Source of the DNA: a virus
Taxonomy: Duplodnaviria; Heunggongvirae; Uroviricota; Caudoviricetes
Strand: one strand, 5' to 3'
IMG/VR virus record: IMGVR_UViG_642979322_000011
Length of the DNA stretch: 64,000 nt
In this document: positions 7,465 through 28,589 of the stretch, piece after piece
Position numbering within the stretch: the stretch's first letter is position 1
How the letters are laid out: each line of letters starts with the position of its first letter
Notes under the pieces: model-generated
What the model was told of the DNA's origin: nothing
Seen by the model: only the letters and a program-made list of their open reading frames with translations
The model's database searches: none
Program-made: the position numbers and the translations under genes

Positions 7465-7540
7465 TGGTGTCCCCTGCAGGAATCGAACCTGCAATTAGCC
7501 CTTAGGAGGGGCTCGTTATATCCATTTAACTAAGAGGACG
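7465..7540 (-). tRNA. argW: tRNA-Arg (anticodon CCU)
   Basis: Reverse complement reads GTCCTCTTAGTTAAATGGATATAACGAGCCCCTCCTAAGGGCTAATTGCAGGTTCGATTCCTGCAGGGGACACCA; cloverleaf with CCT anticodon and encoded CCA. Confidence 0.9.
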
Positions 7541-7734: not shown

Positions 7735-8904
7735 TTGGCACTGAGCGACACCAAACTACGAGGCCTCTACGGAAAACCCTACTCTGGCCCTGCTGAAATC
7801 ACCGATGGTGACGGGTTAAGTGTGCGGATTACTCCAGCAGGAACTATCACGTTTCAGTACCGTTATCGCTGGAATGGTAAGCCAGTACGTCTTACTGTCG
7901 GGCGCTATCCGTCTACTTCACTGAAGGACGCGCGTGTTATCGTCGGTGAGATGCGCGCATTGTACATGAAGGGAGTTAACCCTAAAAATTATTTTGCGCC
8001 CAGTGACGGCGAACTGACATTAAAAGAATGCCTGGATCAGTGGTGGGATAAGTATGTTACTGATCTGAAACCCAATACACAGACGCTTTACAGATCCGTC
8101 GTGTACAACACTATGTACACACAGTTTGAAGGCTCGCCAGTTGCCGGTATCCCTGTATCGGCTTGGGCTCGCTTTTTTGACAAGCAAGAAAGCCTCAACA
8201 AGAAAAAGGCTCGTGTTCTGTTGTTACAACTGCGTTCAGTTATTAACTGGTGTATCAGCCGCCAGTTAATCCCATCATGCGAATTACTCAAACTTAGTGT
8301 AAAGAATATTGGGAAGAAACCAGATGTGGGGAGTCGCGTACTTACCTATACGGAACTGGCAAAGATCTGGCTGGCACTGGAGAACTCAAAAGTGGTTACT
8401 TCCAACAAGCTGTTACATCAATTGCTATTGCTATGGGGGGCCAGGCTTTCTGAGCTACGTCTCGCTACAGCCAGTGAGTTCAACATGGAAGATCTGGTCT
8501 GGACAACCCCTAAAGAGCATTCAAAGATGGGTAATATTATCCGGCGTCCGATATTTACTCAGGTTGAGCCTTATATTGAGCGATTGCTTAATGCGGGTTT
8601 TGATGTGCTATTCCCCGGGCAGGAAATAGATAAACCTATTGATCGTTCGTCGGCTAATTTGTACATGAAAAAGTTAAGGGAGAAAATTGATATTCCTGAA
8701 TGGAGAACGCATGATTTTAGGCGTTCTCTGGTAACGAATTTATCTGGGGAAGGAATTATGCCCCACGTCACTGAAAAAATGCTGGGGCATGAACTTGGGG
8801 GAGTTATGGCCGTGTATAATAAACACGACTGGTTGTCGGAACAGAAAGATGCGTATGAGTTGTATGCTGATAAAATTTTCTGGCACGCTAAACAGCTCGG
8901 TTAA
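7735..8904 (+). CDS. Tyrosine integrase (phage integrase family with N-terminal arm-binding domain)
   Basis: Conserved N-terminus ALSDTKLRGL begins at a TTG (7735) with AGGA RBS; C-terminal catalytic region with HDFRRS; track ORF starts earlier at GTG. Confidence 0.85.
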   Translation: MALSDTKLRGLYGKPYSGPAEITDGDGLSVRITPAGTITFQYRYRWNGKPVRLTVGRYPSTSLKDARVIVGEMRALYMKGVNPKNYFAPSDGELTLKECLDQWWDKYVTDLKPNTQTLYRSVVYNTMYTQFEGSPVAGIPVSAWARFFDKQESLNKKKARVLLLQLRSVINWCISRQLIPSCELLKLSVKNIGKKPDVGSRVLTYTELAKIWLALENSKVVTSNKLLHQLLLLWGARLSELRLATASEFNMEDLVWTTPKEHSKMGNIIRRPIFTQVEPYIERLLNAGFDVLFPGQEIDKPIDRSSANLYMKKLREKIDIPEWRTHDFRRSLVTNLSGEGIMPHVTEKMLGHELGGVMAVYNKHDWLSEQKDAYELYADKIFWHAKQLG

Positions 8905-12158: not shown

Positions 12159-12481
12159 TATGACGCCCTCGAGTGGTTTCTAAACTATCACCACCGTTAG
12201 GTTCGAATCATCGGGTGGTGAGACGTACAGGGTTCGAACTACCGGGAAACCAACCGGCGAGCTTTTCAGCTCCCCTATACGCCCCACCATAATTCAGATG
12301 TGCGCGTGCATACGACAATAAAAAACACGCTCGCGGCGTGTCTCTGTCGCGGTTTCTATCCGGGGTTCGAATCCCGACGGTCAACTCGACCGTGCGAAGA
12401 ATATAATCCCGGATATGTGTTGTCGTCAACAAGTGGCGTGCTATCATCGAATAGTGTTCTATCCTACTCAGTGAGGTTTAA

Positions 12482-20234: not shown

Positions 20235-20580
20235 ATTTAATTTAATCCCCGATATGTGGTCGGGGATGGGGTTAATTAAAGATTTACGTTGAAACCAAAG
20301 CGGGAAGACTTTTCTGATGTACGGGAAATATCCAGCAATTGACGGCGCATTTCTTCCGTCAGATGCTTGAAGGCGTTAAATTCGGCGACAGCCGCATCGA
20401 CGTTATAGCCCTTGCTGTGTAGTTCGTTGAGGATGCGCATAGTTGGGCTTGGCATATCGAAGAGCACGGAAGCATCAAGGCTGATAACCTTGCGATCAAC
20501 ATAGTTCATCGTGGCGTAGGGGTGATGCTCTGAAAACCACGATAAAGGAAAATTGATATTCATCGCAGGAGAAGACAGGG
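20235..20580. repeat. Copy B of the ~350-bp intra-prophage repeat
   Basis: Matches 11440-11790. Confidence 0.75.
20241..20265 (-). terminator. Terminator-like hairpin (part of repeat copy B)
   Basis: CCCCGA-loop-TCGGGG stem homologous to 11440-11462; A/T-rich flank. Confidence 0.4.
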
Positions 20581-20923
20581 CCAGTTGTTTCTGTTCCCAT
20601 AGTTGTTTTTCCATGCGATCGAATTCAGCAATGTAGGCTTCTTTGAAAGCGGCGGCTTTTTTGCCAGTGAACCCCATCACCAGGAAAACGAATCCGTTTT
20701 TGGTGATTTGGTACATTGGGCGTTGCTCGCCTTTGGCGTCGGTGTAGGTAACGTCCTCAAAATTGAGGGCGTTAAATTTCTCTGAGCATTCAATATTTGC
20801 AATGGCGCGCAATACGTTATCGTGTCGTTTGCAAAAATATTCGGCAACGGCAAAGGACGTAGTAACAGCGCGACCATTGGAAATGGTGATTTCAGGTTGA
20901 GAAAGGACTGGGATAGTAGCCAT
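20276..20923 (-). CDS. Rha-family phage regulatory protein
   Basis: N-terminus AVTTSFAVAEYFCKRHDNVLRAI is Rha-like; C-terminal domain shared with 11481-12158; start set to MATIPV. Confidence 0.65.
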   Translation of the reverse strand: MATIPVLSQPEITISNGRAVTTSFAVAEYFCKRHDNVLRAIANIECSEKFNALNFEDVTYTDAKGEQRPMYQITKNGFVFLVMGFTGKKAAAFKEAYIAEFDRMEKQLWEQKQLALSSPAMNINFPLSWFSEHHPYATMNYVDRKVISLDASVLFDMPSPTMRILNELHSKGYNVDAAVAEFNAFKHLTEEMRRQLLDISRTSEKSSRFGFNVNL

Positions 20924-21633
20924 AATGGCAGCCTCCTTGATTGGTGATTGATAACCACCGCTGGAGGTAGCAAGCTCGCTGGCGGTGGACTGTACAGGGT
21001 TGCTACAACTGGCAATCAAGGGAACCAGCCCGACCGAAGTCGGCCCCATACAGCCCACCATTGATAAGATGTGCGTGTATGTCGATACAAAAAAAAGACG
21101 CTGGCGCGTCTGTATCGCCTCGATTGTCAGCGGGGTAGCAATCCCGACACCCGTTTTATGAGGTGTTCGCCAAATATAGCCCCGACATCACACGCAGTCA
21201 ATACCGTCCTTTCTCAGAAACGCTTTGGCGGTGCCGCCTGCACCCCAAAACATTCCCTGTATTGGTCAGCGCCAACTTCCTGCCAGTGTTGCCCGTTCTC
21301 ACGCCGTTCTCGCTCTCGCGCGGGGATACTCTCTCATCGACCGGATCGCACCCGATGATACAGCACGTTTACGTGTAGGGGTCTAAACAGGTCATTGACG
21401 CTGTAAAGCTCCAGATTGTTAAAGAGCATTTTGCGGCGGGTTAAGTCGCGCCGTACGACTGATTTATGTAGCCCTGTGTAAGGGCGCGATGTTTCTGGCT
21501 TGAAATAAATATAACTTGCGGTGATTTTCATGTAAATACCGTTGGTGCTTTTTAAGGGCGAGAAATTATTACTTAACTGATTTTTAAAGTGATTTATTTT
21601 TTAAGGGGGCAGATAACAGGAGGGGATATGCAA

Positions 21634-21658
21634 AGAAAAACCCGGCGCATGGGCCGGG
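21634..21658 (-). terminator. Rho-independent terminator downstream of the R-M pair
   Basis: Minus strand CCCGGC-6nt-GCCGGG followed by TTTTT. Confidence 0.55.
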
Positions 21659-21678
21659 CTATTTATCTGGTCCTGTTC

Positions 21679-22632
21679 TCATTCAGTAGAGTAGGGGCCA
21701 AGAAATCGCACTCCGTTGAAGTGAATAAGATGAGAAGGTGCATCAGCCACCCATACCTCTGTTTCCCATGCGATTTCACCAAGATATCGCCCCATGATGG
21801 AGCGATTTGGAAAAGCGGTCACATAGACAAGTCCGGCTGTTGATCCGGCAAACAGCCTGGCAAGCTCAGCATGCCGCTTCCCATCAACCGGTCCATGACT
21901 GGTGACAGACTCAACCAGTAGCAGCCAGTTTTTCGCAGTAAAATGTAGCACCACATCTGGCATTTTACCGTGTGAATCCACATCAACACCTAGCCCGGCC
22001 AGCAGTGGAGCGTCGAAGTAGCCCCACTTTTCGCCAGTGTCGCCAGCATAGACCAGCACGCTACCCGGAGCAAAACGTGGGGCGAAGTCCTCTATTATGG
22101 CACGGATAAGTTCGCTGTGCTCGCCGGGACTGAGGGTTATTTGCTGGCCCGCAGCAATTTCAACAGGGATACGATTCTGTTCGCGCTCCTTAGCATAGCG
22201 GGTAACCAGCGTTTCACGCTCGGCTAAATAGGTTGCAAGGCTATCGTGCCATGCCGGGCTGCCGAAAGTGCGTAGCATGGACAGAGCAGCAGGTTCGATC
22301 TGATAAACAGCCTTCGGGCTGTTCACTGGGCGATCGGGCTTGTCCGGATTGTAGAGGGCTACTCCAGCAGCGCAGAACTGATGCATAGACTGGCGGCGGA
22401 ATGTCTCACGAGTATTGGGTGCGTAGACCTTGCCGTAGTGCTCCCGAACCCAATTCATGATTGGTGTAATGCCCACAAGCGGATTTTCCGCGTCGGCCCA
22501 TGCTTTTCCCGGTGTGAGGTTCAGGAGTGCCAGCAAACACAAAGCAGAACGCTCATTCTGCTGCGCTCTGGGCAGGCCTAAGGATGCTATAATTTGCTGA
22601 GCGGCCTCAATATAATCATTTTGGTTGTTCAT
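21679..22632 (-). CDS. Putative type II restriction endonuclease (BsuBI/PstI-like)
   Basis: 317-aa ORF overlapping the methyltransferase stop by 4 bp; N-terminus QQIIASLGLPRAQQNERSALCLL resembles BsuBI/PstI-family enzymes from memory. Confidence 0.5.
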   Translation of the reverse strand: MNNQNDYIEAAQQIIASLGLPRAQQNERSALCLLALLNLTPGKAWADAENPLVGITPIMNWVREHYGKVYAPNTRETFRRQSMHQFCAAGVALYNPDKPDRPVNSPKAVYQIEPAALSMLRTFGSPAWHDSLATYLAERETLVTRYAKEREQNRIPVEIAAGQQITLSPGEHSELIRAIIEDFAPRFAPGSVLVYAGDTGEKWGYFDAPLLAGLGVDVDSHGKMPDVVLHFTAKNWLLLVESVTSHGPVDGKRHAELARLFAGSTAGLVYVTAFPNRSIMGRYLGEIAWETEVWVADAPSHLIHFNGVRFLGPYSTE

Positions 22633-24098
22633 GCAGTCAGAGCTCCTAGCTTAGCGTCAATATGTTCTTGCGTGAGAGTTTCTTGTTGCATAGCCCACTT
22701 GCCAAGCTCTATCAGAGTGTCACGGCTTGGGTACTTAATCATCTTGAGGTCGGTTGCATTGACCTGTGTATGCCCGTTGAAGCGACGGAAATACTTATCC
22801 ACTGCGGTAGTGTTCAGGAACACGGCCAAGCCACGGGCCAGCGCCTCGGGTAACCCATGTTTGTTCTCATGAAACACGTTCATGTGATTTTCAAATCCCA
22901 ACACTGAATACTCACTGAAGGTAGCAGGATCAACGACGCTTGCTACCACTCGGCGCTTTTCCTCCTTCGACGAGAAACGACGCACCACACAATAAAAACC
23001 GTTCGGGTAAAGCCACTTTTCTGTCTCGTCGTTGCGCATGATTGCATTGGGTTTCTTCAAACCTTCCACAGGCCAGACAGTGCTACTCATACTCAAATGG
23101 CTCGGGTAGATCAGGGGAACAGTTCCTTCTTCTGGCATGCTGCGCAAATGAGCTTTCAGTCGGAAATCAACTATCGGTCCGGTCGATACCTTCACGCCAA
23201 TATCAGCCAGCGAATATTGTACGGCAGATGATAACTCAATGGCGCTTTTCTCGAGCGTGGTCGGCACATGAATAAACCGCTCTGAATCGTCCGGGTACAC
23301 AATCTGGTCAAATGGGTGTTCGTAGGTGACCAGGTCAAAAAAGCTATCATCGGTCGAAGTTGTGACTGTAACAGCCTCCTGACGGCCTCCACGCTCCAGG
23401 CGGATGATAATATTTTCCTGCAACACATCGTCATCCCTGAAAGCTTTGCTACGTGATTCGAACAAATGAATATGGCGGATTGCTGCCCGTTCAAGTATGA
23501 AATTACGGAACGGACGGTAATACGGTCCGTTGCAGAAACTACGTGGGATTATGGCCACTATCTGCCCGCCAGGTGCAACCTCACCTACAGCCAGTGCAAC
23601 AAAGGCGGAATACAGATTTACCGTCTCGATACCGACAGTGCGAAGAGCCTGCCGGTGGGCTGACTGGCTATTGATCTTCTTGTAAGGCGGATTAAGTATT
23701 GCATGGGTATAACCTCGATCCTGTAGACCTTCGGCGGTTGCCAGCTCAATATAATCCCCTTCGATGATGCGGGGCGTCACTCTCCTGTACCCGGTTAAGT
23801 GCTTCGCAAGGTGACCACACAGCTTTTTGTCGATTTCGTAGGCTGTTGCCTCGACAGACTCAAAGCCAAACTCGCCAACCAGCCAACGGTCGAGGAAGGC
23901 GCAAGACAGTGCGCCTACACCAGCGCCTGCGTCCAGTAGACGGCAAGTTTTCATTGTGCTCGGTGGAAACAAGGAGGCCATAAAACGGGCCACGCCAGAA
24001 GGCGTCATGAACTGGCCGAACTCAGCTTTGTGTTTACGCGCGGTACGGGGAGACAGCTCGCGACGCACGCTGTCTGCGACGTCTAGCTTTTGAAGCAT
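22629..24098 (-). CDS. N6-adenine DNA methyltransferase, gamma class
   Basis: Motif order FGQFMTPSGVARF (X), LLDAGAGVGALS (I), ILNPPYKKI (IV); AGAGGA RBS. Confidence 0.8.
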   Translation of the reverse strand: MLQKLDVADSVRRELSPRTARKHKAEFGQFMTPSGVARFMASLFPPSTMKTCRLLDAGAGVGALSCAFLDRWLVGEFGFESVEATAYEIDKKLCGHLAKHLTGYRRVTPRIIEGDYIELATAEGLQDRGYTHAILNPPYKKINSQSAHRQALRTVGIETVNLYSAFVALAVGEVAPGGQIVAIIPRSFCNGPYYRPFRNFILERAAIRHIHLFESRSKAFRDDDVLQENIIIRLERGGRQEAVTVTTSTDDSFFDLVTYEHPFDQIVYPDDSERFIHVPTTLEKSAIELSSAVQYSLADIGVKVSTGPIVDFRLKAHLRSMPEEGTVPLIYPSHLSMSSTVWPVEGLKKPNAIMRNDETEKWLYPNGFYCVVRRFSSKEEKRRVVASVVDPATFSEYSVLGFENHMNVFHENKHGLPEALARGLAVFLNTTAVDKYFRRFNGHTQVNATDLKMIKYPSRDTLIELGKWAMQQETLTQEHIDAKLGALTA

Positions 24099-24138
24099 AA
24101 CTAATCCTCTTTACGTGGCATGATGATGCCAACGTGCT

Positions 24139-24179
24139 TTTGACATCCTCCACATTCTTCAGGCGTGAAGGATGTCAAA
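24139..24179. promoter_or_regulatory. 11-bp perfect inverted repeat between cI and the methyltransferase; candidate OL/PL operator
   Basis: TTTGACATCCT-19nt-AGGATGTCAAA; shares TTGACAT with the PR -35 region. Confidence 0.35.
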
Positions 24180-24192
24180 TCACTCTGTGAGC

Positions 24193-24906
24193 TCAATCAA
24201 AAGTCTCATCATTCCACTGCGATTTGATGACCTTTCCGACAAACTGGCAGTTTTCGTTACACTCAATCATGTCGAATCGTGGGTTGAGCGGCTCCAGGTA
24301 CGCTTTACCGCTCTCACGAATGAATCGTTTGAAGGTAAATTCATCGCCGTTCATTCGGGCCACGCAAAAATCGCCATCCTCGATTTCCCGTTCAGGGTCA
24401 ACGAGTATCAGCATACCTTCAGGGAAGCTGGGTTTACCACCCTGCGGTGCGGTCATTGAATGCCCCTTGACCTCCAGCCAGAACGACCTGTCACTGGCTT
24501 TTGTGGTGGTGGAGATCCATTTAATCGCATCTTTTGCGGTGTACGAAATATCATCCATTGAGAATGCGCCAGCTTGTACGCAGGAGAGTAACGGATATTC
24601 GTAAGCGGGGACACGAGTTAATGGCTCTTCAATTGCGAGCGCCATTTCTGCAATAGATTTTGCCAGGCTGGGACTGAAATCTCCGACCTTTACATTCAGT
24701 ATCTTAGCAAGCTGTGCTGCGTGGCTGGCATTTATGGCGTTGATGCCAGCCATTAGCTGATTAACAGCGCTTTGGGTAACACCTAATTCATAGGCTAATG
24801 ATTCCTGCGACAGGCCTAACTCTTTCTTTTTAGCGTTAAAAATACTTTTCAGACGCTTGGCGTCTTCCAGTTGCTCAGGGGTTAACGGTTTCTTTTTCAT
24901 GTTCAT
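24193..24906 (-). CDS. cI: CI-type repressor (HTH plus LexA-like S24 autopeptidase domain)
   Basis: N-terminal XRE HTH ([21 protein letters not shown]); C-terminal S24-like domain; divergent from cro. Confidence 0.85.
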
Positions 24907-24948
24907 ACCATATCACCTTTGGTTATATGTAATGAAATATCTGTGGTG

Positions 24949-24977
24949 TTGACATTTTAATAACCGTGCGTAATGAT
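24949..24977 (+). promoter_or_regulatory. Putative PR promoter in the cI-cro intergenic region
   Basis: TTGACA at 24949-24954, 16-17 nt spacer, TAATGA-like -10; cro RBS AGGAG follows. Confidence 0.5.
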
Positions 24978-25001
24978 ATGGGCATTTTGAAGGAGTCAGT
25001 T

Positions 25002-25205
25002 ATGGCGATGAAAAAAGAGACCCTGGCTGATTACGTATACAGGTTCGGTCAGAAGAAAGCCGCTAAGGACTTTGGTGTGGCGCAGAGCGCGATCAGTAAA
25101 GCGCTTCTCGTCGGACGTGAAATTTACGTCAAAACCTTTGATGACGGCAGAGTTGAGGCGGAAGAGGTTCGACCGTTCCCTGCGTTCGTAAGAGGCGATG
25201 ATTAA
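25002..25205 (+). CDS. cro: Cro-like repressor
   Basis: 67-aa HTH protein ([20 protein letters not shown]) divergent from cI. Confidence 0.65.
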
Positions 25206-25235
25206 TCCTGGACACACAGCCCATCGGAGGTGTGA

Positions 25236-25529
25236 GTGAACAGGCAAATCAAAACGGTTATGCCCGAGCAGTACTGTGATGCTGATCGGGACTGGATACA
25301 GGAGCAATTGTTACAGCTAGACCCGACCACCCGGGTAAAAATTGCAGCAGAGTACGCGAGAGTGTACCAGGAAGAGTGGGACAAGGAGCCTGTATCGTTC
25401 AGGAAGGGCAACAGGGCAAGACGGAGCGCCAACACCCGGTTACGGGTGTATGTCCAGAAGTACGCGAGAGCCAGCCGTGGCTGGATGCTTTCGCCAGTAG
25501 CGGTACGGAAGTTTCCCCCGACACCATGA
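25236..25529 (+). CDS. Hypothetical protein in cII position, Arg-rich C-terminus
   Basis: ORF only; not similar to lambda CII. Confidence 0.4.
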   Translation: MNRQIKTVMPEQYCDADRDWIQEQLLQLDPTTRVKIAAEYARVYQEEWDKEPVSFRKGNRARRSANTRLRVYVQKYARASRGWMLSPVAVRKFPPTP

Positions 25530-25736
25530 TGGCGGTTAGTTGTGCTAGAAATAATTTCACATGCAACTAATTTCCTGAAAGGAAGCGAGGAGGGGGTAAG
25601 GGGGTGGAGTCGTTGGTAAGGCCTGTATCCCTTGGCCTAGGCCAGAAGGCAGGTACATAGGTTAGGTAGATCACTGTATAAGCGCGCGATAGTTTCTGGT
25701 GAAATAATTATCGAGCTAACTATTGAGTGATAGACT

Positions 25737-26114
25737 ATGTCAGCAGCAACCAAATCGGCACTGATCCGTACACTGAGCACTGTACCACTGAGAACAGAGG
25801 AGCGTTACAGCTTTCTGGCTGATGTTGTAACGCTCCTTGAGTCACAGGGGATGCATGTGGCAAGCAATGTCACAGTAAGAATCGATGGCAGAAATTTCCG
25901 TGTTGATATTCTCGCAACAGCAAAAACTGGTGGGAGTGTGGCTATCGAGATCGATCGTAGCTCTCCGCGATCCCGCTCAGTCATGAAATTGCGTGAATTG
26001 GCACGTCGTGGCACTGAAGGCTTTGTGTTGCTTCGAATGCCAAAGAAACTGACCAGTTATAGCGATGCTGGGATCGATATCATCCCGGCGAATGGCAAGG
26101 GGGCGTCATGCTGA
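25737..26114 (+). CDS. Hypothetical protein
   Basis: ORF overlapping the helicase start. Confidence 0.4.
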   Translation: MSAATKSALIRTLSTVPLRTEERYSFLADVVTLLESQGMHVASNVTVRIDGRNFRVDILATAKTGGSVAIEIDRSSPRSRSVMKLRELARRGTEGFVLLRMPKKLTSYSDAGIDIIPANGKGASC

Positions 26115-27628
26115 AAATCACCCCAAACTTTGCTCAGGAGCGCGGTTTAAACCAGCTGCGGCACCAGTGGAAACAGCATCGCACGTACCTGATGTACGCA
26201 CCCACTGGCTCTGGCAAAACTGGTCTTGCAGCATTCGTCACCGCCGGAATGGTTGAACGTGGTATGCGAGTGATGTTTGTCTGTCCGTACACCATCCTGC
26301 TGAACCAGACAGCGGAACGTTTCACCGAATACGGTTTGCCGTGGGAAGAAATCAGTTTTGTATGGCGTGATCACCCTAACTATGACCCGTCACGACTGAT
26401 TCAGATTGCCAGTGCCGACACGCTGATCCGTCGTGAGTTTCCTGACAACATCGATCTGCTGATCATCGATGAAGCACACATGAAGCGTCGTGCGTTACTT
26501 GAGGTTATCCGGGACAGAGACATCAGGGTTCTTGGACTTTCCGGCACCCCGTTCGCAGCCTGGATGGGGAAGTACTACGAATGCCTGATCAAGCCTACAA
26601 CGATTCGTGAACTTATTCAGCGTGGTGATCTGAGCGATTATGAGTTTTTTGCCCCCTCAATGCCTGATCTGGCTGGCGTAAAAACCAGTAACACCGTATT
26701 TGGACGGGATTACAACGAGGAGCAGCTCGCATCCATCATGGGGAGTTCAGATCTGGTTGGCGATATCGTTCGCAACTGGCTTGAGAATGGCGAGGATTTA
26801 CCGACGATTTGCTTCTGCGTGAACGTGGCTCATGCGAACTTTGTTACCCGTGAGTTTTTACAGTCTGGCATTGGCGCAGAGGTGATGACGGCAGATACCC
26901 CCCATGATGAACGGCAGGACATCATTCGCCGTTTTGAAGAGGGTGCGACCAAAATAATTGTCAACGTTGGCGTACTGGTTGCGGGATTTGACAGCGATGT
27001 TCGCTGCCTAATCTACGCCCGTCCGACCAAATCAGAAATCCGCTGGTTGCAGTGCATCGGGAGAGCGTTACGTACTGCGTCTGGTAAAAAACGCGCATTG
27101 ATTTTCGACCATTCCGGTACGGTTCATCGGCTGGGCTTCCCCGAGGATATCGAGTATGACGAACTTCCGGGAAAAAATGACGGAATGCAAGCGTCTGCTG
27201 GCGGGAGTGAGGTTAAGGCTGAGAAACTTCCCAGGAAATGCCCCAAATGCCACTTCATGAAGCCTGCTGGCGTGCATATGTGTCCCAAATGTGGATTTCG
27301 TCCTCTTGGTGGTGATGACGTGGCGACAGATCGCGATCGTAAGCTTTCACGCGTCAACAAAGGGAAACGCGAATACAGCCGCGAGGAAAAGCAGCGTTGG
27401 TGGAGTGAGATCAAGGGGTATCAGAATTACCGCAACGCGACTGGTAAACCCCTGAGTGACGGATGGTGTGCTCATACCTACAAGGAGAAGTTCGGGGTTT
27501 GGCCCAAAGGATTCAGTAATGCGCCGCTGCAAACCTCAGTTGAAGTGTACAACTTCATCAAGTCAAAGACCATTGCCTATGCCAAAGGGCGCAAGAAAGC
27601 CATGACAGGAGGCCAGCATGCAGACTAA
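26108..27628 (+). CDS. Superfamily-2 DNA helicase (replication)
   Basis: Walker A YAPTGSGKT and DEAH box LLIIDEAHM; C-terminal Cys4 cluster. Confidence 0.8.
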   Translation: MLKITPNFAQERGLNQLRHQWKQHRTYLMYAPTGSGKTGLAAFVTAGMVERGMRVMFVCPYTILLNQTAERFTEYGLPWEEISFVWRDHPNYDPSRLIQIASADTLIRREFPDNIDLLIIDEAHMKRRALLEVIRDRDIRVLGLSGTPFAAWMGKYYECLIKPTTIRELIQRGDLSDYEFFAPSMPDLAGVKTSNTVFGRDYNEEQLASIMGSSDLVGDIVRNWLENGEDLPTICFCVNVAHANFVTREFLQSGIGAEVMTADTPHDERQDIIRRFEEGATKIIVNVGVLVAGFDSDVRCLIYARPTKSEIRWLQCIGRALRTASGKKRALIFDHSGTVHRLGFPEDIEYDELPGKNDGMQASAGGSEVKAEKLPRKCPKCHFMKPAGVHMCPKCGFRPLGGDDVATDRDRKLSRVNKGKREYSREEKQRWWSEIKGYQNYRNATGKPLSDGWCAHTYKEKFGVWPKGFSNAPLQTSVEVYNFIKSKTIAYAKGRKKAMTGGQHAD

Positions 27629-28589
27629 GAAGGCAGCGGTCGGGCATTGGGGGCGAATTTTTGAATATTACGGCATGCCTCCTGTTACTGGTGTGAAACA
27701 TTACAACGGACCCTGCCCGATATGTGGTGCCAGAGGTAAATTTCGCTGTGATGATAAAGATGGCTCCGGTTCGTGGATTTGCGTCTGTGGTCACGGGGAC
27801 GGGATGGAGTTGTTGCAACTTGCCACGGGTAAGCCCTGGGTGACGTTGTGTGATGAAATCGATCGGCTGATCGGAAATACCTGGAAGAGGGAGAAAGTCA
27901 GCCAGCCTGTAACAGAGATAAGCAGAAAGCGGAAGCTGGTCATGGATAAGTTCTCCAGACTTTCATGTCTGCGGGGCACAACAGGTGAGGCGTACCTGCA
28001 GGGGAGGGGAATACTCCAGTTACCGACCGAATCCGTGCGTTTCTGTGACCGTCAGATCGCCAGCGGGCGCGAATATCAGGCAATTTACGCCATTGCAACA
28101 GATGACAAAGGTTCTCTTTGCTATCTGCATCGTACGTTGCTGGATGGTGATCGCAAGGCGAATGTAGAGGCGGCTAAAAAAATGACCGCGCTACAGGAGT
28201 TGCCTGGTTTGCAGTATGCCAAATCGGTGGCAATACGCCTGTATCCGGTGTCGTCCACTCTGGGGATAGCCGAGGGTATCGAAACGGCGCTTTCATGCCG
28301 TCAAATATTCCGCTGCAATGTGTGGTCAACAATGAACTCCGGTTTTATGGAGAAGTTTATTGCGCCACCAGGCGTTAATCACCTGATTATATTTGCTGAC
28401 AATGATGAGCACGGCGCAGGTCTGGCGGCTGCCTTTAAATGCGGGCATAAGAATCTCATGAGTCGCAATGACGTTGAGAAGGTCAGTATTCGCTGGCCTG
28501 ACCTGCCGGATTTTAACGACATGCTCATTCAGGGGGGGGAAGCCCGTGAGCATGTGTTGACGCGCAAATTCAAAGCGGAGGCTGCCTGA
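27618..28589 (+). CDS. DNA primase (zinc-binding/TOPRIM type)
   Basis: N-terminal CPICGARGKFRCDD...WICVCGHGDG zinc-binding motif and acidic IIFADNDEHG TOPRIM-like motif. Confidence 0.7.
   Translation: MQTKKAAVGHWGRIFEYYGMPPVTGVKHYNGPCPICGARGKFRCDDKDGSGSWICVCGHGDGMELLQLATGKPWVTLCDEIDRLIGNTWKREKVSQPVTEISRKRKLVMDKFSRLSCLRGTTGEAYLQGRGILQLPTESVRFCDRQIASGREYQAIYAIATDDKGSLCYLHRTLLDGDRKANVEAAKKMTALQELPGLQYAKSVAIRLYPVSSTLGIAEGIETALSCRQIFRCNVWSTMNSGFMEKFIAPPGVNHLIIFADNDEHGAGLAAAFKCGHKNLMSRNDVEKVSIRWPDLPDFNDMLIQGGEAREHVLTRKFKAEAA

Follow-up and report, generated by a model that had tools for sequence, protein, structure and literature searches.

The DNA considered here, a stretch of 64,000 nucleotides from a virus of the Caudoviricetes (IMG/VR record IMGVR_UViG_642979322_000011) to which we refer as the window, is identified by its sequence as a Shiga toxin 2a (Stx2a)-converting prophage of the "Eru1/PST2" type, a family that includes the phage of the 2011 O104:H4 outbreak. 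Our subject is a pair of restriction-modification (R-M) genes, M and R, which lies immediately leftward of the repressor gene cI, together with the adjoining DNA in which the counterpart of the lambda N gene has to be sought. As a description of the sequence, the features at 21634-24192 that had been reported in a preliminary description of the window are correct. From cro leftward the locus is composed as follows:

25002-25205, plus strand: cro, lambda Cro family (Pfam Cro, E 5e-33; 60% identity with lambda Cro; start as called by the Prokaryotic Genome Annotation Pipeline, PGAP)
24949-24954 and 24972-24977: -35 and -10 elements of PR (promoter scan)
24911-24975: OR region with OR3 (24911-24927, TATCACCTTTGGTTATA), OR2 (24935-24951) and OR1 (24959-24975) (promoter scan, pattern search, position weight matrix)
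24193-24906, minus strand: cI repressor, 237 amino acids, HTH_3 and Peptidase_S24 domains (Pfam), 61% identity with lambda cI over 236 amino acids
24139-24179, minus strand: perfect 16-bp palindrome (hairpin) in the 94-bp cI-M spacer, z-score -3.95, without U tract, at the right end of the cassette
22629-24098, minus strand: M, gamma-class N6-adenine DNA methyltransferase of M.EcoGIII type, 489 amino acids (Pfam, NCBIfam, identity to strain C227-11)
21679-22632, minus strand: R, BsuBI/PstI-family type IIP endonuclease of R.EcoGIII type, 317 amino acids (Pfam, match to 2IXS, identity to C227-11)
21630-21660, minus strand: intrinsic terminator closing the cI/M/R unit, GC-rich hairpin (21660-21639) plus U tract (terminator scan, fold)
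21508-21550, minus strand: predicted sigma-70-like promoter PL, -35 TTTACA (21536-21531), 17-bp spacer, -10 TATATT (21513-21508) (consensus scan)
21534-21550 and 21510-21526: predicted operators OL2 (AAGCACCAACGGTATTT) and OL1 (AATCACCGCAAGTTATA), upstream of and between the PL hexamers
21241-21428, minus strand: phi80-type nutL block, boxA TGCTCTTTAACAA (21428-21416) and boxB core CACGTAAACGTG (21375-21364)
21091-21201, minus strand: IsrK-family small RNA (sRNA) gene, RNA 21166-21091 (Rfam RF01394, 61.8 bits against a gathering threshold of 50)
20978-21065, minus strand: C4-family antisense RNA (Rfam RF01695, 77.4 bits against a gathering threshold of 45)
20276-20923, minus strand: Rha-family or antirepressor-like regulator (Pfam Phage_pRha, NCBIfam, PHROGs categories Rha and anti-repressor)

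M and R constitute a genuine type II R-M pair, as the preliminary description had it, and the profile searches that it had proposed matched both families. R contains the two domains of the BsuBI/PstI family, the N-terminal helix-turn-helix (HTH) domain (PF17728, E 1e-54) and the C-terminal catalytic domain (PF06616, E 5e-61), and aligns over its full length with the sequence of the SdaI structure 2IXS (E 1e-77), so that the nuclease homology of the 317-residue protein is clear. M matches the Eco57I N6-adenine methyltransferase family of Pfam (E 3e-9) and, weakly, type II adenine-methyltransferase families of NCBIfam, and its motif I (LLDAGAGVG, residues 54-62) precedes motif IV (NPPY, residues 136-139), which is the gamma-class order; a search for a solved structure of M yielded a single weak match (2OZV, E 2e-4). 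The stop codon of M and the start codon of R share the sequence ATGA, and this 4-bp overlap as well as the hairpin and U tract of the terminator that follows R were seen as previously described.

Compared with the proteins of the O104:H4 strain C227-11, R is identical at all 317 residues and M at 486 of 489 (99%), with three amino-acid substitutions. Judged by this identity the pair is EcoGIII, a type IIP R-M system and PstI/BsuBI isoschizomer for CTGCAG. In the summary of Fang et al. 2012 that is contained in PMC6602927, and as far as that summary goes, EcoGIII is a PstI-like type II system which methylates CTGCAG to the N6-methyladenine (m6A) form CTGC(m6A)G and cleaves the site, is 100% active in lysogens, guards against other lambda-like phages by restricting unmodified incoming ones, and alters the expression of about 1,950 genes. 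The proteins of the window being 99-100% identical to the published ones, recognition and cleavage of CTGCAG and protection by m6A presumably apply to them as well. The window itself holds 11 CTGCAG sites, as compared to 15 expected under a mononucleotide model or 26 under a Markov model. Avoidance of the site by the phage was considered and rejected, since the depletion is not specific: among the remaining 63 six-base palindromes, 10 are depleted more strongly.

But where in the lambdoid gene order does the pair stand? In the preliminary description M and R had been assigned to the position of lambda N. The gene order shows them at the position of rexAB instead. Leftward, the window reads cI, hairpin, M, R, terminator, OL/PL, nutL, isrK, C4, rha, kil, gam, recT and exo. 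The corresponding order is cI, rexA, rexB, OL/PL, nutL and N in lambda; cI, three open reading frames (ORFs), stk, a further ORF, the tM terminator, nutL and N in 933W; and cI, gene 40A, OL/PL, nutL and N in phi80, so that lambdoid phages normally have cargo between cI and OL. Because OL/PL and nutL follow the terminator of R in the same way as they follow rexB in lambda, the M-R pair falls into the rexAB slot, and the position of N lies further left, at about 21060-21500.

The placement of OL and PL is supported in two ways. First, OR consists of three 17-mers which overlap PR and whose centres are 24 bp apart, and a position weight matrix (PWM) trained solely on the six half-sites of these three 17-mers was used to score the approximately 64,000 positions of the window. 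The predicted OL1 and OL2 rank 6 and 7 and are likewise spaced by 24 bp; OL1 resembles lambda OR3. Transcription from PL would start near 21501. As a third OL operator the site 21612-21628 was considered and rejected, as it ranks only 203rd. Two further high-scoring sites, TATCACCAAAGATTTTT at 59349-59365 (rank 2) and AATCACCGATGGTGACG at 7797-7813 (rank 5), are remote from the immunity region; they may be distal operators or due to chance.

Second, two related prophages carry different alleles of parts of the region. Prophage UCPROB-002 shares its cI and PL with the window, and the two are collinear as far as 21657 and from 24179 onward; in place of the intervening segment 21658-24178 it has (locus L004, 3252-5615) a membrane (transmembrane) protein, an SDH-family Clp-fold protease, two unknown ORFs and HicAB. 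This comparison sets the boundaries of the cassette at 21657/21658 on the left and 24178/24179 on the right. Prophage F690 has a different N-terminal (DNA-binding) domain of cI, a different OR and a different cro, window positions 24605-25220 being replaced. Its M-R is retained (95.5% identity), and a second stretch without homology covers 21515-21659, entirely upstream of the PL -10 element, with the edge exactly at 21514/21515. A change in repressor specificity thus alters OR together with a patch left of the R-M terminator, and that patch would therefore be OL/PL, which the two allele swaps place at 21508-21659. Between R and its own PL (locus L011, 3780-4630) F690 has an extra pair of genes with a Panacea domain, probably a toxin-antitoxin system.

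Taken together, M-R is very probably a two-gene cargo cassette (about 21658-24178) in the immunity region, which occupies the slot of lambda rexAB and 933W stk, is expressed in the lysogen, and has PL to its left. As a separate observation, F690 and UCPROB-002 present the slot between cI and PL as a hotspot for defence and toxin-antitoxin cargo.

In the lysogen M-R would most likely be expressed by read-through from the cI maintenance promoter, like rexAB in lambda, with a possible contribution of a weak promoter in the cassette, and this transcription would stop at the terminator at 21660-21639. M would be translated first and R would be translationally coupled to it via the ATGA overlap, and hence a new lysogen would be methylated before it is restricted. 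Early-left transcription would begin at the cI-controlled PL, left of the terminator of R, and thus bypass M-R. The outcome for the lysogen, as it is known from the literature, would be defence against unmodified phages and genome-wide m6A.

Several points weigh against this picture. The 16-bp hairpin between cI and M is no canonical terminator since it lacks a U tract, yet it could attenuate or process the cI-M-R transcript, and co-transcription of cI with M-R is argued from the geometry of the genes alone. Only two OL operators are convincing, the third candidate at 21612-21628 scoring poorly; the assignment of the operators and of PL is computational, and the operators of this phage group were not identifiable to Yin et al. 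2015 (PMC4587872). Finally, the cassette may have a promoter of its own that was missed by the consensus scan, as it works in very diverse genomes.

This last point leads to the alternative that survives best, namely that M-R has a constitutive promoter of its own and forms an autonomous unit that has been parked next to cI and is expressed independently of the cI maintenance promoter PRM. We regard this as possible but as the less likely course. In hundreds of unrelated genomes the M-then-R cassette works although no cI lies beside it, the palindrome at its upstream end includes a TTGACA, and a stable hairpin past cI could limit read-through. Then again, the missing U tract speaks against an efficient stop at this hairpin, and neither promoter-like sites nor operators were detected in the 94-bp spacer by consensus scan, pattern search or PWM. 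A promoter in this spacer was accordingly rejected as a candidate, the TTGACA of the palindrome lacking a properly spaced -10 element. Read-through from the cI promoter thus remains our preferred reading for the expression of M-R.

The distribution of the cassette is informative about its nature. Related cassettes were found at at least 598 loci across many phyla, and the following statistics are taken from the best 80 of them (L013-L092). M precedes R, abutting or overlapping it, in all 78 loci with room upstream, none of which has a cI homologue adjoining the pair. R is the more conserved partner (median identity 80%, as compared to 64% for M), and homologues of R with 70-91% identity occur in Chloroflexota, Pseudomonadota, Verrucomicrobiota, Cyanobacteria, Acidobacteriota and one Paenibacillus. 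This R-M family is unusually well conserved and widely transferred. Furthermore, the last 45 or so nucleotides before the start of M (24099-24145, minus strand), which include a small hairpin (GGCATCATCATGCC), look like the 3' terminus of a resolvase/invertase-like gene (...YKHVGVITPRQ*); in Serratia nevei and several metagenome-assembled genomes such a gene lies ahead of M. This remnant is probably a scar of the former context of the cassette and suggests by which route it arrived.

With M-R assigned to the rexAB slot, what occupies the place of N? No homologues of the N, cII, cIII, O and P proteins of lambda, 933W and phi80 were found in the window by tblastn, Pfam and PHROGs, in agreement with the preliminary description, and the N query HK225_041 did not match in the window either. 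The question raised there of how early antitermination is achieved was a legitimate one, and part of its answer is present, as a nut site could be found and an N gene could not. This site, the phi80-type nutL block downstream of PL, is 94% identical to phi80 over 188 bp, starting exactly at the annotated nutL boxA and including the annotated core hairpin CACGTAAACGTG, and the homology stops about 165 bp before the N gene of phi80. Its boxA TGCTCTTTAACAA agrees with the rrn consensus at 13 of 13 positions, which is the sole such match in 64 kb (about 0.002 expected), whereas the phi80 copy has one mismatch. On the rightward side, no plus-strand site within three mismatches of the 12-nucleotide boxA core TGCTCTTTAACA was detected at 24980-30400, i.e. 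a nutR was not found.

The nutL block was surveyed in at least 120 IMG/VR viral contigs (L094-L213), from which 83 distinct sequences were aligned. It is conserved at 90% or more per column over about 165-190 nucleotides, which makes it too invariant for covariation analysis, and homology stops just past a conserved ATG at block position 176. The variants among the 120 contigs are few (boxA with C in 35 and with T in 85; boxB loop TAAA in 96 and AAAA in 24), and what follows the block is not: a phi80-type N lies within 2.2 kb downstream in 11 of the 120, isrK/C4/Rha follows in 27, and the remainder have very diverse ORFs. To judge from these alignments, the nutL block is a highly conserved and promiscuous leader module. 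We favour the view that in the window it is either a relic of a displaced N gene or has a weak anti-Rho function.

A stronger claim would be that nutL mediates N-independent antitermination, its boxA recruiting NusB/NusE, NusG, NusA and SuhB to transcription complexes from PL and thereby shielding the untranslated leader of about 580 nucleotides from Rho and raising read-through into rha-kil-gam-recT-exo. An rrn boxA alone suppresses Rho-dependent termination, and both the perfect rrn match, where phi80 has a mismatch, and the conservation of the block in contigs of which only 11 in 120 have a phi80-type N nearby are in support of such a role. However, rrn-type complexes read poorly through intrinsic terminators such as that of IsrK at 21111-21096, the PR operon has no boxA-like site, the fold of the leader is not unusually stable (z-score -1.08), and the conservation may merely mirror recent mosaic exchange or the block be a relic of an N displaced by isrK-C4-rha. 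On balance we consider N-independent antitermination improbable. The more specific proposal that the Eru1 phages lost N but kept a nutL whose boxA turned into a perfect rrn boxA, and that this Nus-loading block shields the leader and sets the level of read-through past the IsrK terminator, is a long shot. If it were true, the nutL leader could help to explain why lysogens of these phages are reported to be unusually unstable and, as a consequence, to yield much Stx.

Still weaker is the possibility that an N analogue which escaped recognition acts at the phi80-type nutL and its hairpin RNA (CACGUAAACGUG), being either encoded by the phage itself or provided in trans by lambdoid prophages in the same cell, of which enterohaemorrhagic E. 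coli strains harbour many. The phage-borne candidate lies just after cro:

25260-25529: ORF34, Arg-rich, no function assigned by Pfam or PHROGs

ORF34 contains an invariant Arg-rich segment, FRKxNxARRxANTRLRVYVQKYARASRG. It is unlike every N tested, though, its 12 homologues are all close and unnamed, and its AlphaFold2 model is of low confidence (predicted local distance difference test, pLDDT, 65) and found nothing in the PDB at E <=0.001 with Foldseek, so that ORF34 is not supported as an analogue of N or of cII. E. coli C600 is not known to carry a prophage with a phi80-type N. A nutR was likewise not found, and the propagation of Eru1 phages in C600 (PMC8044961) speaks against supply in trans. 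We deem it very unlikely that such an N analogue operates here.

Two other candidates at the place of N were rejected. An Arg-rich ORF of 65 amino acids (21334-21531, minus strand) has no match in Pfam, NCBIfam or PHROGs and was judged spurious, because its ATG lies inside the PL -35 element, upstream of the predicted start of transcription, and because boxA lies within it. A put-like RNA was dismissed as well, as the leader shows no similarity to the PL-nun region of HK022, no Rfam match and the inconspicuous fold mentioned above. Independently of N, we note that about 40 bp at 25674-25712 (plus-strand coordinates), just upstream of ORF35, repeat the PL -10 element and the initial transcribed sequence in the same orientation; they may constitute another leftward promoter, which would be antisense to ORF34 and occupy the position of the lambda oop promoter.

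The last of the alternatives is hardly tenable: that the early-left operon is headed by R-M in place of N and a PL between cI and M reads through this pair into the recombination genes, as the preliminary description had suggested, would fit the direction of M-R, its place immediately left of cI and the absence of an N gene, but is contradicted by the spacer being devoid of operator-like and promoter-like sites, by the strong terminator after R with operators and promoter left of it, by the edge of the F690 immunity swap at 21514/21515 rather than in the spacer, and by the cargo that lambda, 933W and phi80 all have between cI and OL.

Downstream of nutL, the place of N is taken by the IsrK/C4/Rha module. 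The isrK gene has a promoter-like site of its own at 21201-21173 and the terminator at 21111-21096 (promoter and terminator scans), and rha is the first protein gene of the early-left operon. In the Gifsy-1 isrK-orf45-anrP module, read-through of a terminator and the sRNA control the antirepressor (PMC4825925). The annotated N-terminal extension of Rha to 21050/21061 overlaps the C4 RNA. At 20924-21061 (minus strand) the N-terminal 46 amino acids of the resulting 261-residue "Rha" ORF match Pfam Phage_ASH and coincide with the C4 RNA, and PGAP calls an "ash family protein" over homologous DNA in many E. coli genomes; the Ash family may in part consist of translations of an RNA gene.

A second pair of IsrK (12320-12393, 53 bits) and C4 (12211-12294, 70 bits), together spanning 12211-12393 on the minus strand, is located more to the left within the early-left region, and in the O104:H4 copy an antirepressor gene, Ant, is annotated further left. 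The P13374 record (HE664024; locus L002, 7347-8178) has approximately 930 bp of extra DNA between kil and rha as compared to the window and C227-11, coding for a paralogue of Rha/Ant labelled "antitermination ORF26" and for "antB2". A duplication or a difference in assembly could account for this extra DNA, and there seems to be no basis for the label "antitermination".

How much of this is new? The R-M pair beside cI and the lack of N, cII, cIII and O/P, which made up the finding of the preliminary description, are both already published, because EcoGIII as well as the gene losses of the Eru1 phages are in the literature. Yin et al. 2015 (PMC4587872) described a "bsuBI" R-M system standing where cII and cIII are unrecognisable in this phage cluster, and Llarena et al. 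2021 (PMC8044961) reported that Eru1 phages are without homologues of lambda N, CII and CIII and that a helicase and a primase replace O/P; genes for both were found in the window by Pfam. Also published are the consequences of EcoGIII, which leaves every host CTGCAG methylated in important outbreak strains, restricts rival phages and perturbs host transcription. The 4.3-kb region around the pair is 99.5-100% identical at the DNA level to P13374, TL-2011c, Ss-VASD, phi191, PA2 and PA8; the O104:H4 C227-11 copy is 99.5% identical and prophages of O157:H7, O111 and bovine isolates are 100% identical to the window. At least 80% of the region is held by 96 phage records and by 134 of 5,426 complete E. 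coli genomes, C227-11 among them.

What our work adds is, first, a corrected map in which R-M is cargo of the immunity region in the rexAB slot, with bounds at 21658 and 24178; second, an explicit proposal for the OR and OL operators and for PL, no earlier one having been found for this phage group; and third, the finding that an orphan phi80-type nutL followed by the IsrK/C4/Rha module holds the place of N. The orphan nutL with its perfected boxA ahead of the IsrK/C4/antirepressor module is the sole part that merits follow-up. It is a modest lead, which, if the site is functional, would bear on early-left control in Stx phages that lack N and on the instability of their lysogeny.

Outside the immunity and early-left regions the window contains the following features:

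31011-32251: stx2A and stx2B
30669-30917: three tRNAs upstream of stx2A (Rfam)
32326-32531, plus strand: STnc100, just downstream of stx2B (Rfam)
32533-32585, minus strand: AsxR, just downstream of stx2B (Rfam)
38614-38730: ALIL pseudoknot, a frameshift signal of the IS3 family and thus indicative of an insertion sequence (IS) element (Rfam)
7468-7539, minus strand: one tRNA (Rfam)

When set against known systems, M-R agrees with EcoGIII of the O104:H4 Stx2a prophage (P13374 / TL-2011c) in R, gene order, flanks and phage family, and is the same system. With the PstI/BsuBI and SdaI endonucleases, R has in common the two-domain architecture of HTH and catalytic domains, and M, with its NPPY motif, is the gamma-class m6A partner. 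The genes for R and M of PstI are divergent, and SdaI (CCTGCAGG, PDB 2IXS) reads an 8-bp site. The pair of the window, different from these relatives, is phage-borne, lies in an immunity region and is arranged in tandem, M before R with an overlap of 4 bp.

The nutL of the window, like that of the phi80 nutL-N module, is located just downstream of PL. Here, however, the N gene of phi80 (98 amino acids) is absent, boxA is a perfect rrn consensus and nutR was not found. The DNA that follows parallels the isrK-orf45-anrP module of Gifsy-1 and the c4-icd-ant immI region of P1/P7, in that an IsrK sRNA with a promoter and a leaky terminator, a C4 RNA and an antirepressor-like gene are combined. Different from Gifsy-1, P1 and P7, the module stands directly downstream of PL and nutL, in the place of N.

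The closest parallels to the cassette as a whole are lambda rexA-rexB, 933W stk and phi80 40A, with which M-R shares the slot, the strand of cI, a terminator before OL/PL, for which lambda t-imm and 933W tM are the analogues, and the expression, in the lysogen, of a function in exclusion or defence. The proteins themselves are unrelated, and M-R is a classical R-M cargo that also methylates the host chromosome. Unlike the cargo of lambda, 933W and phi80, it could act as an addiction module.

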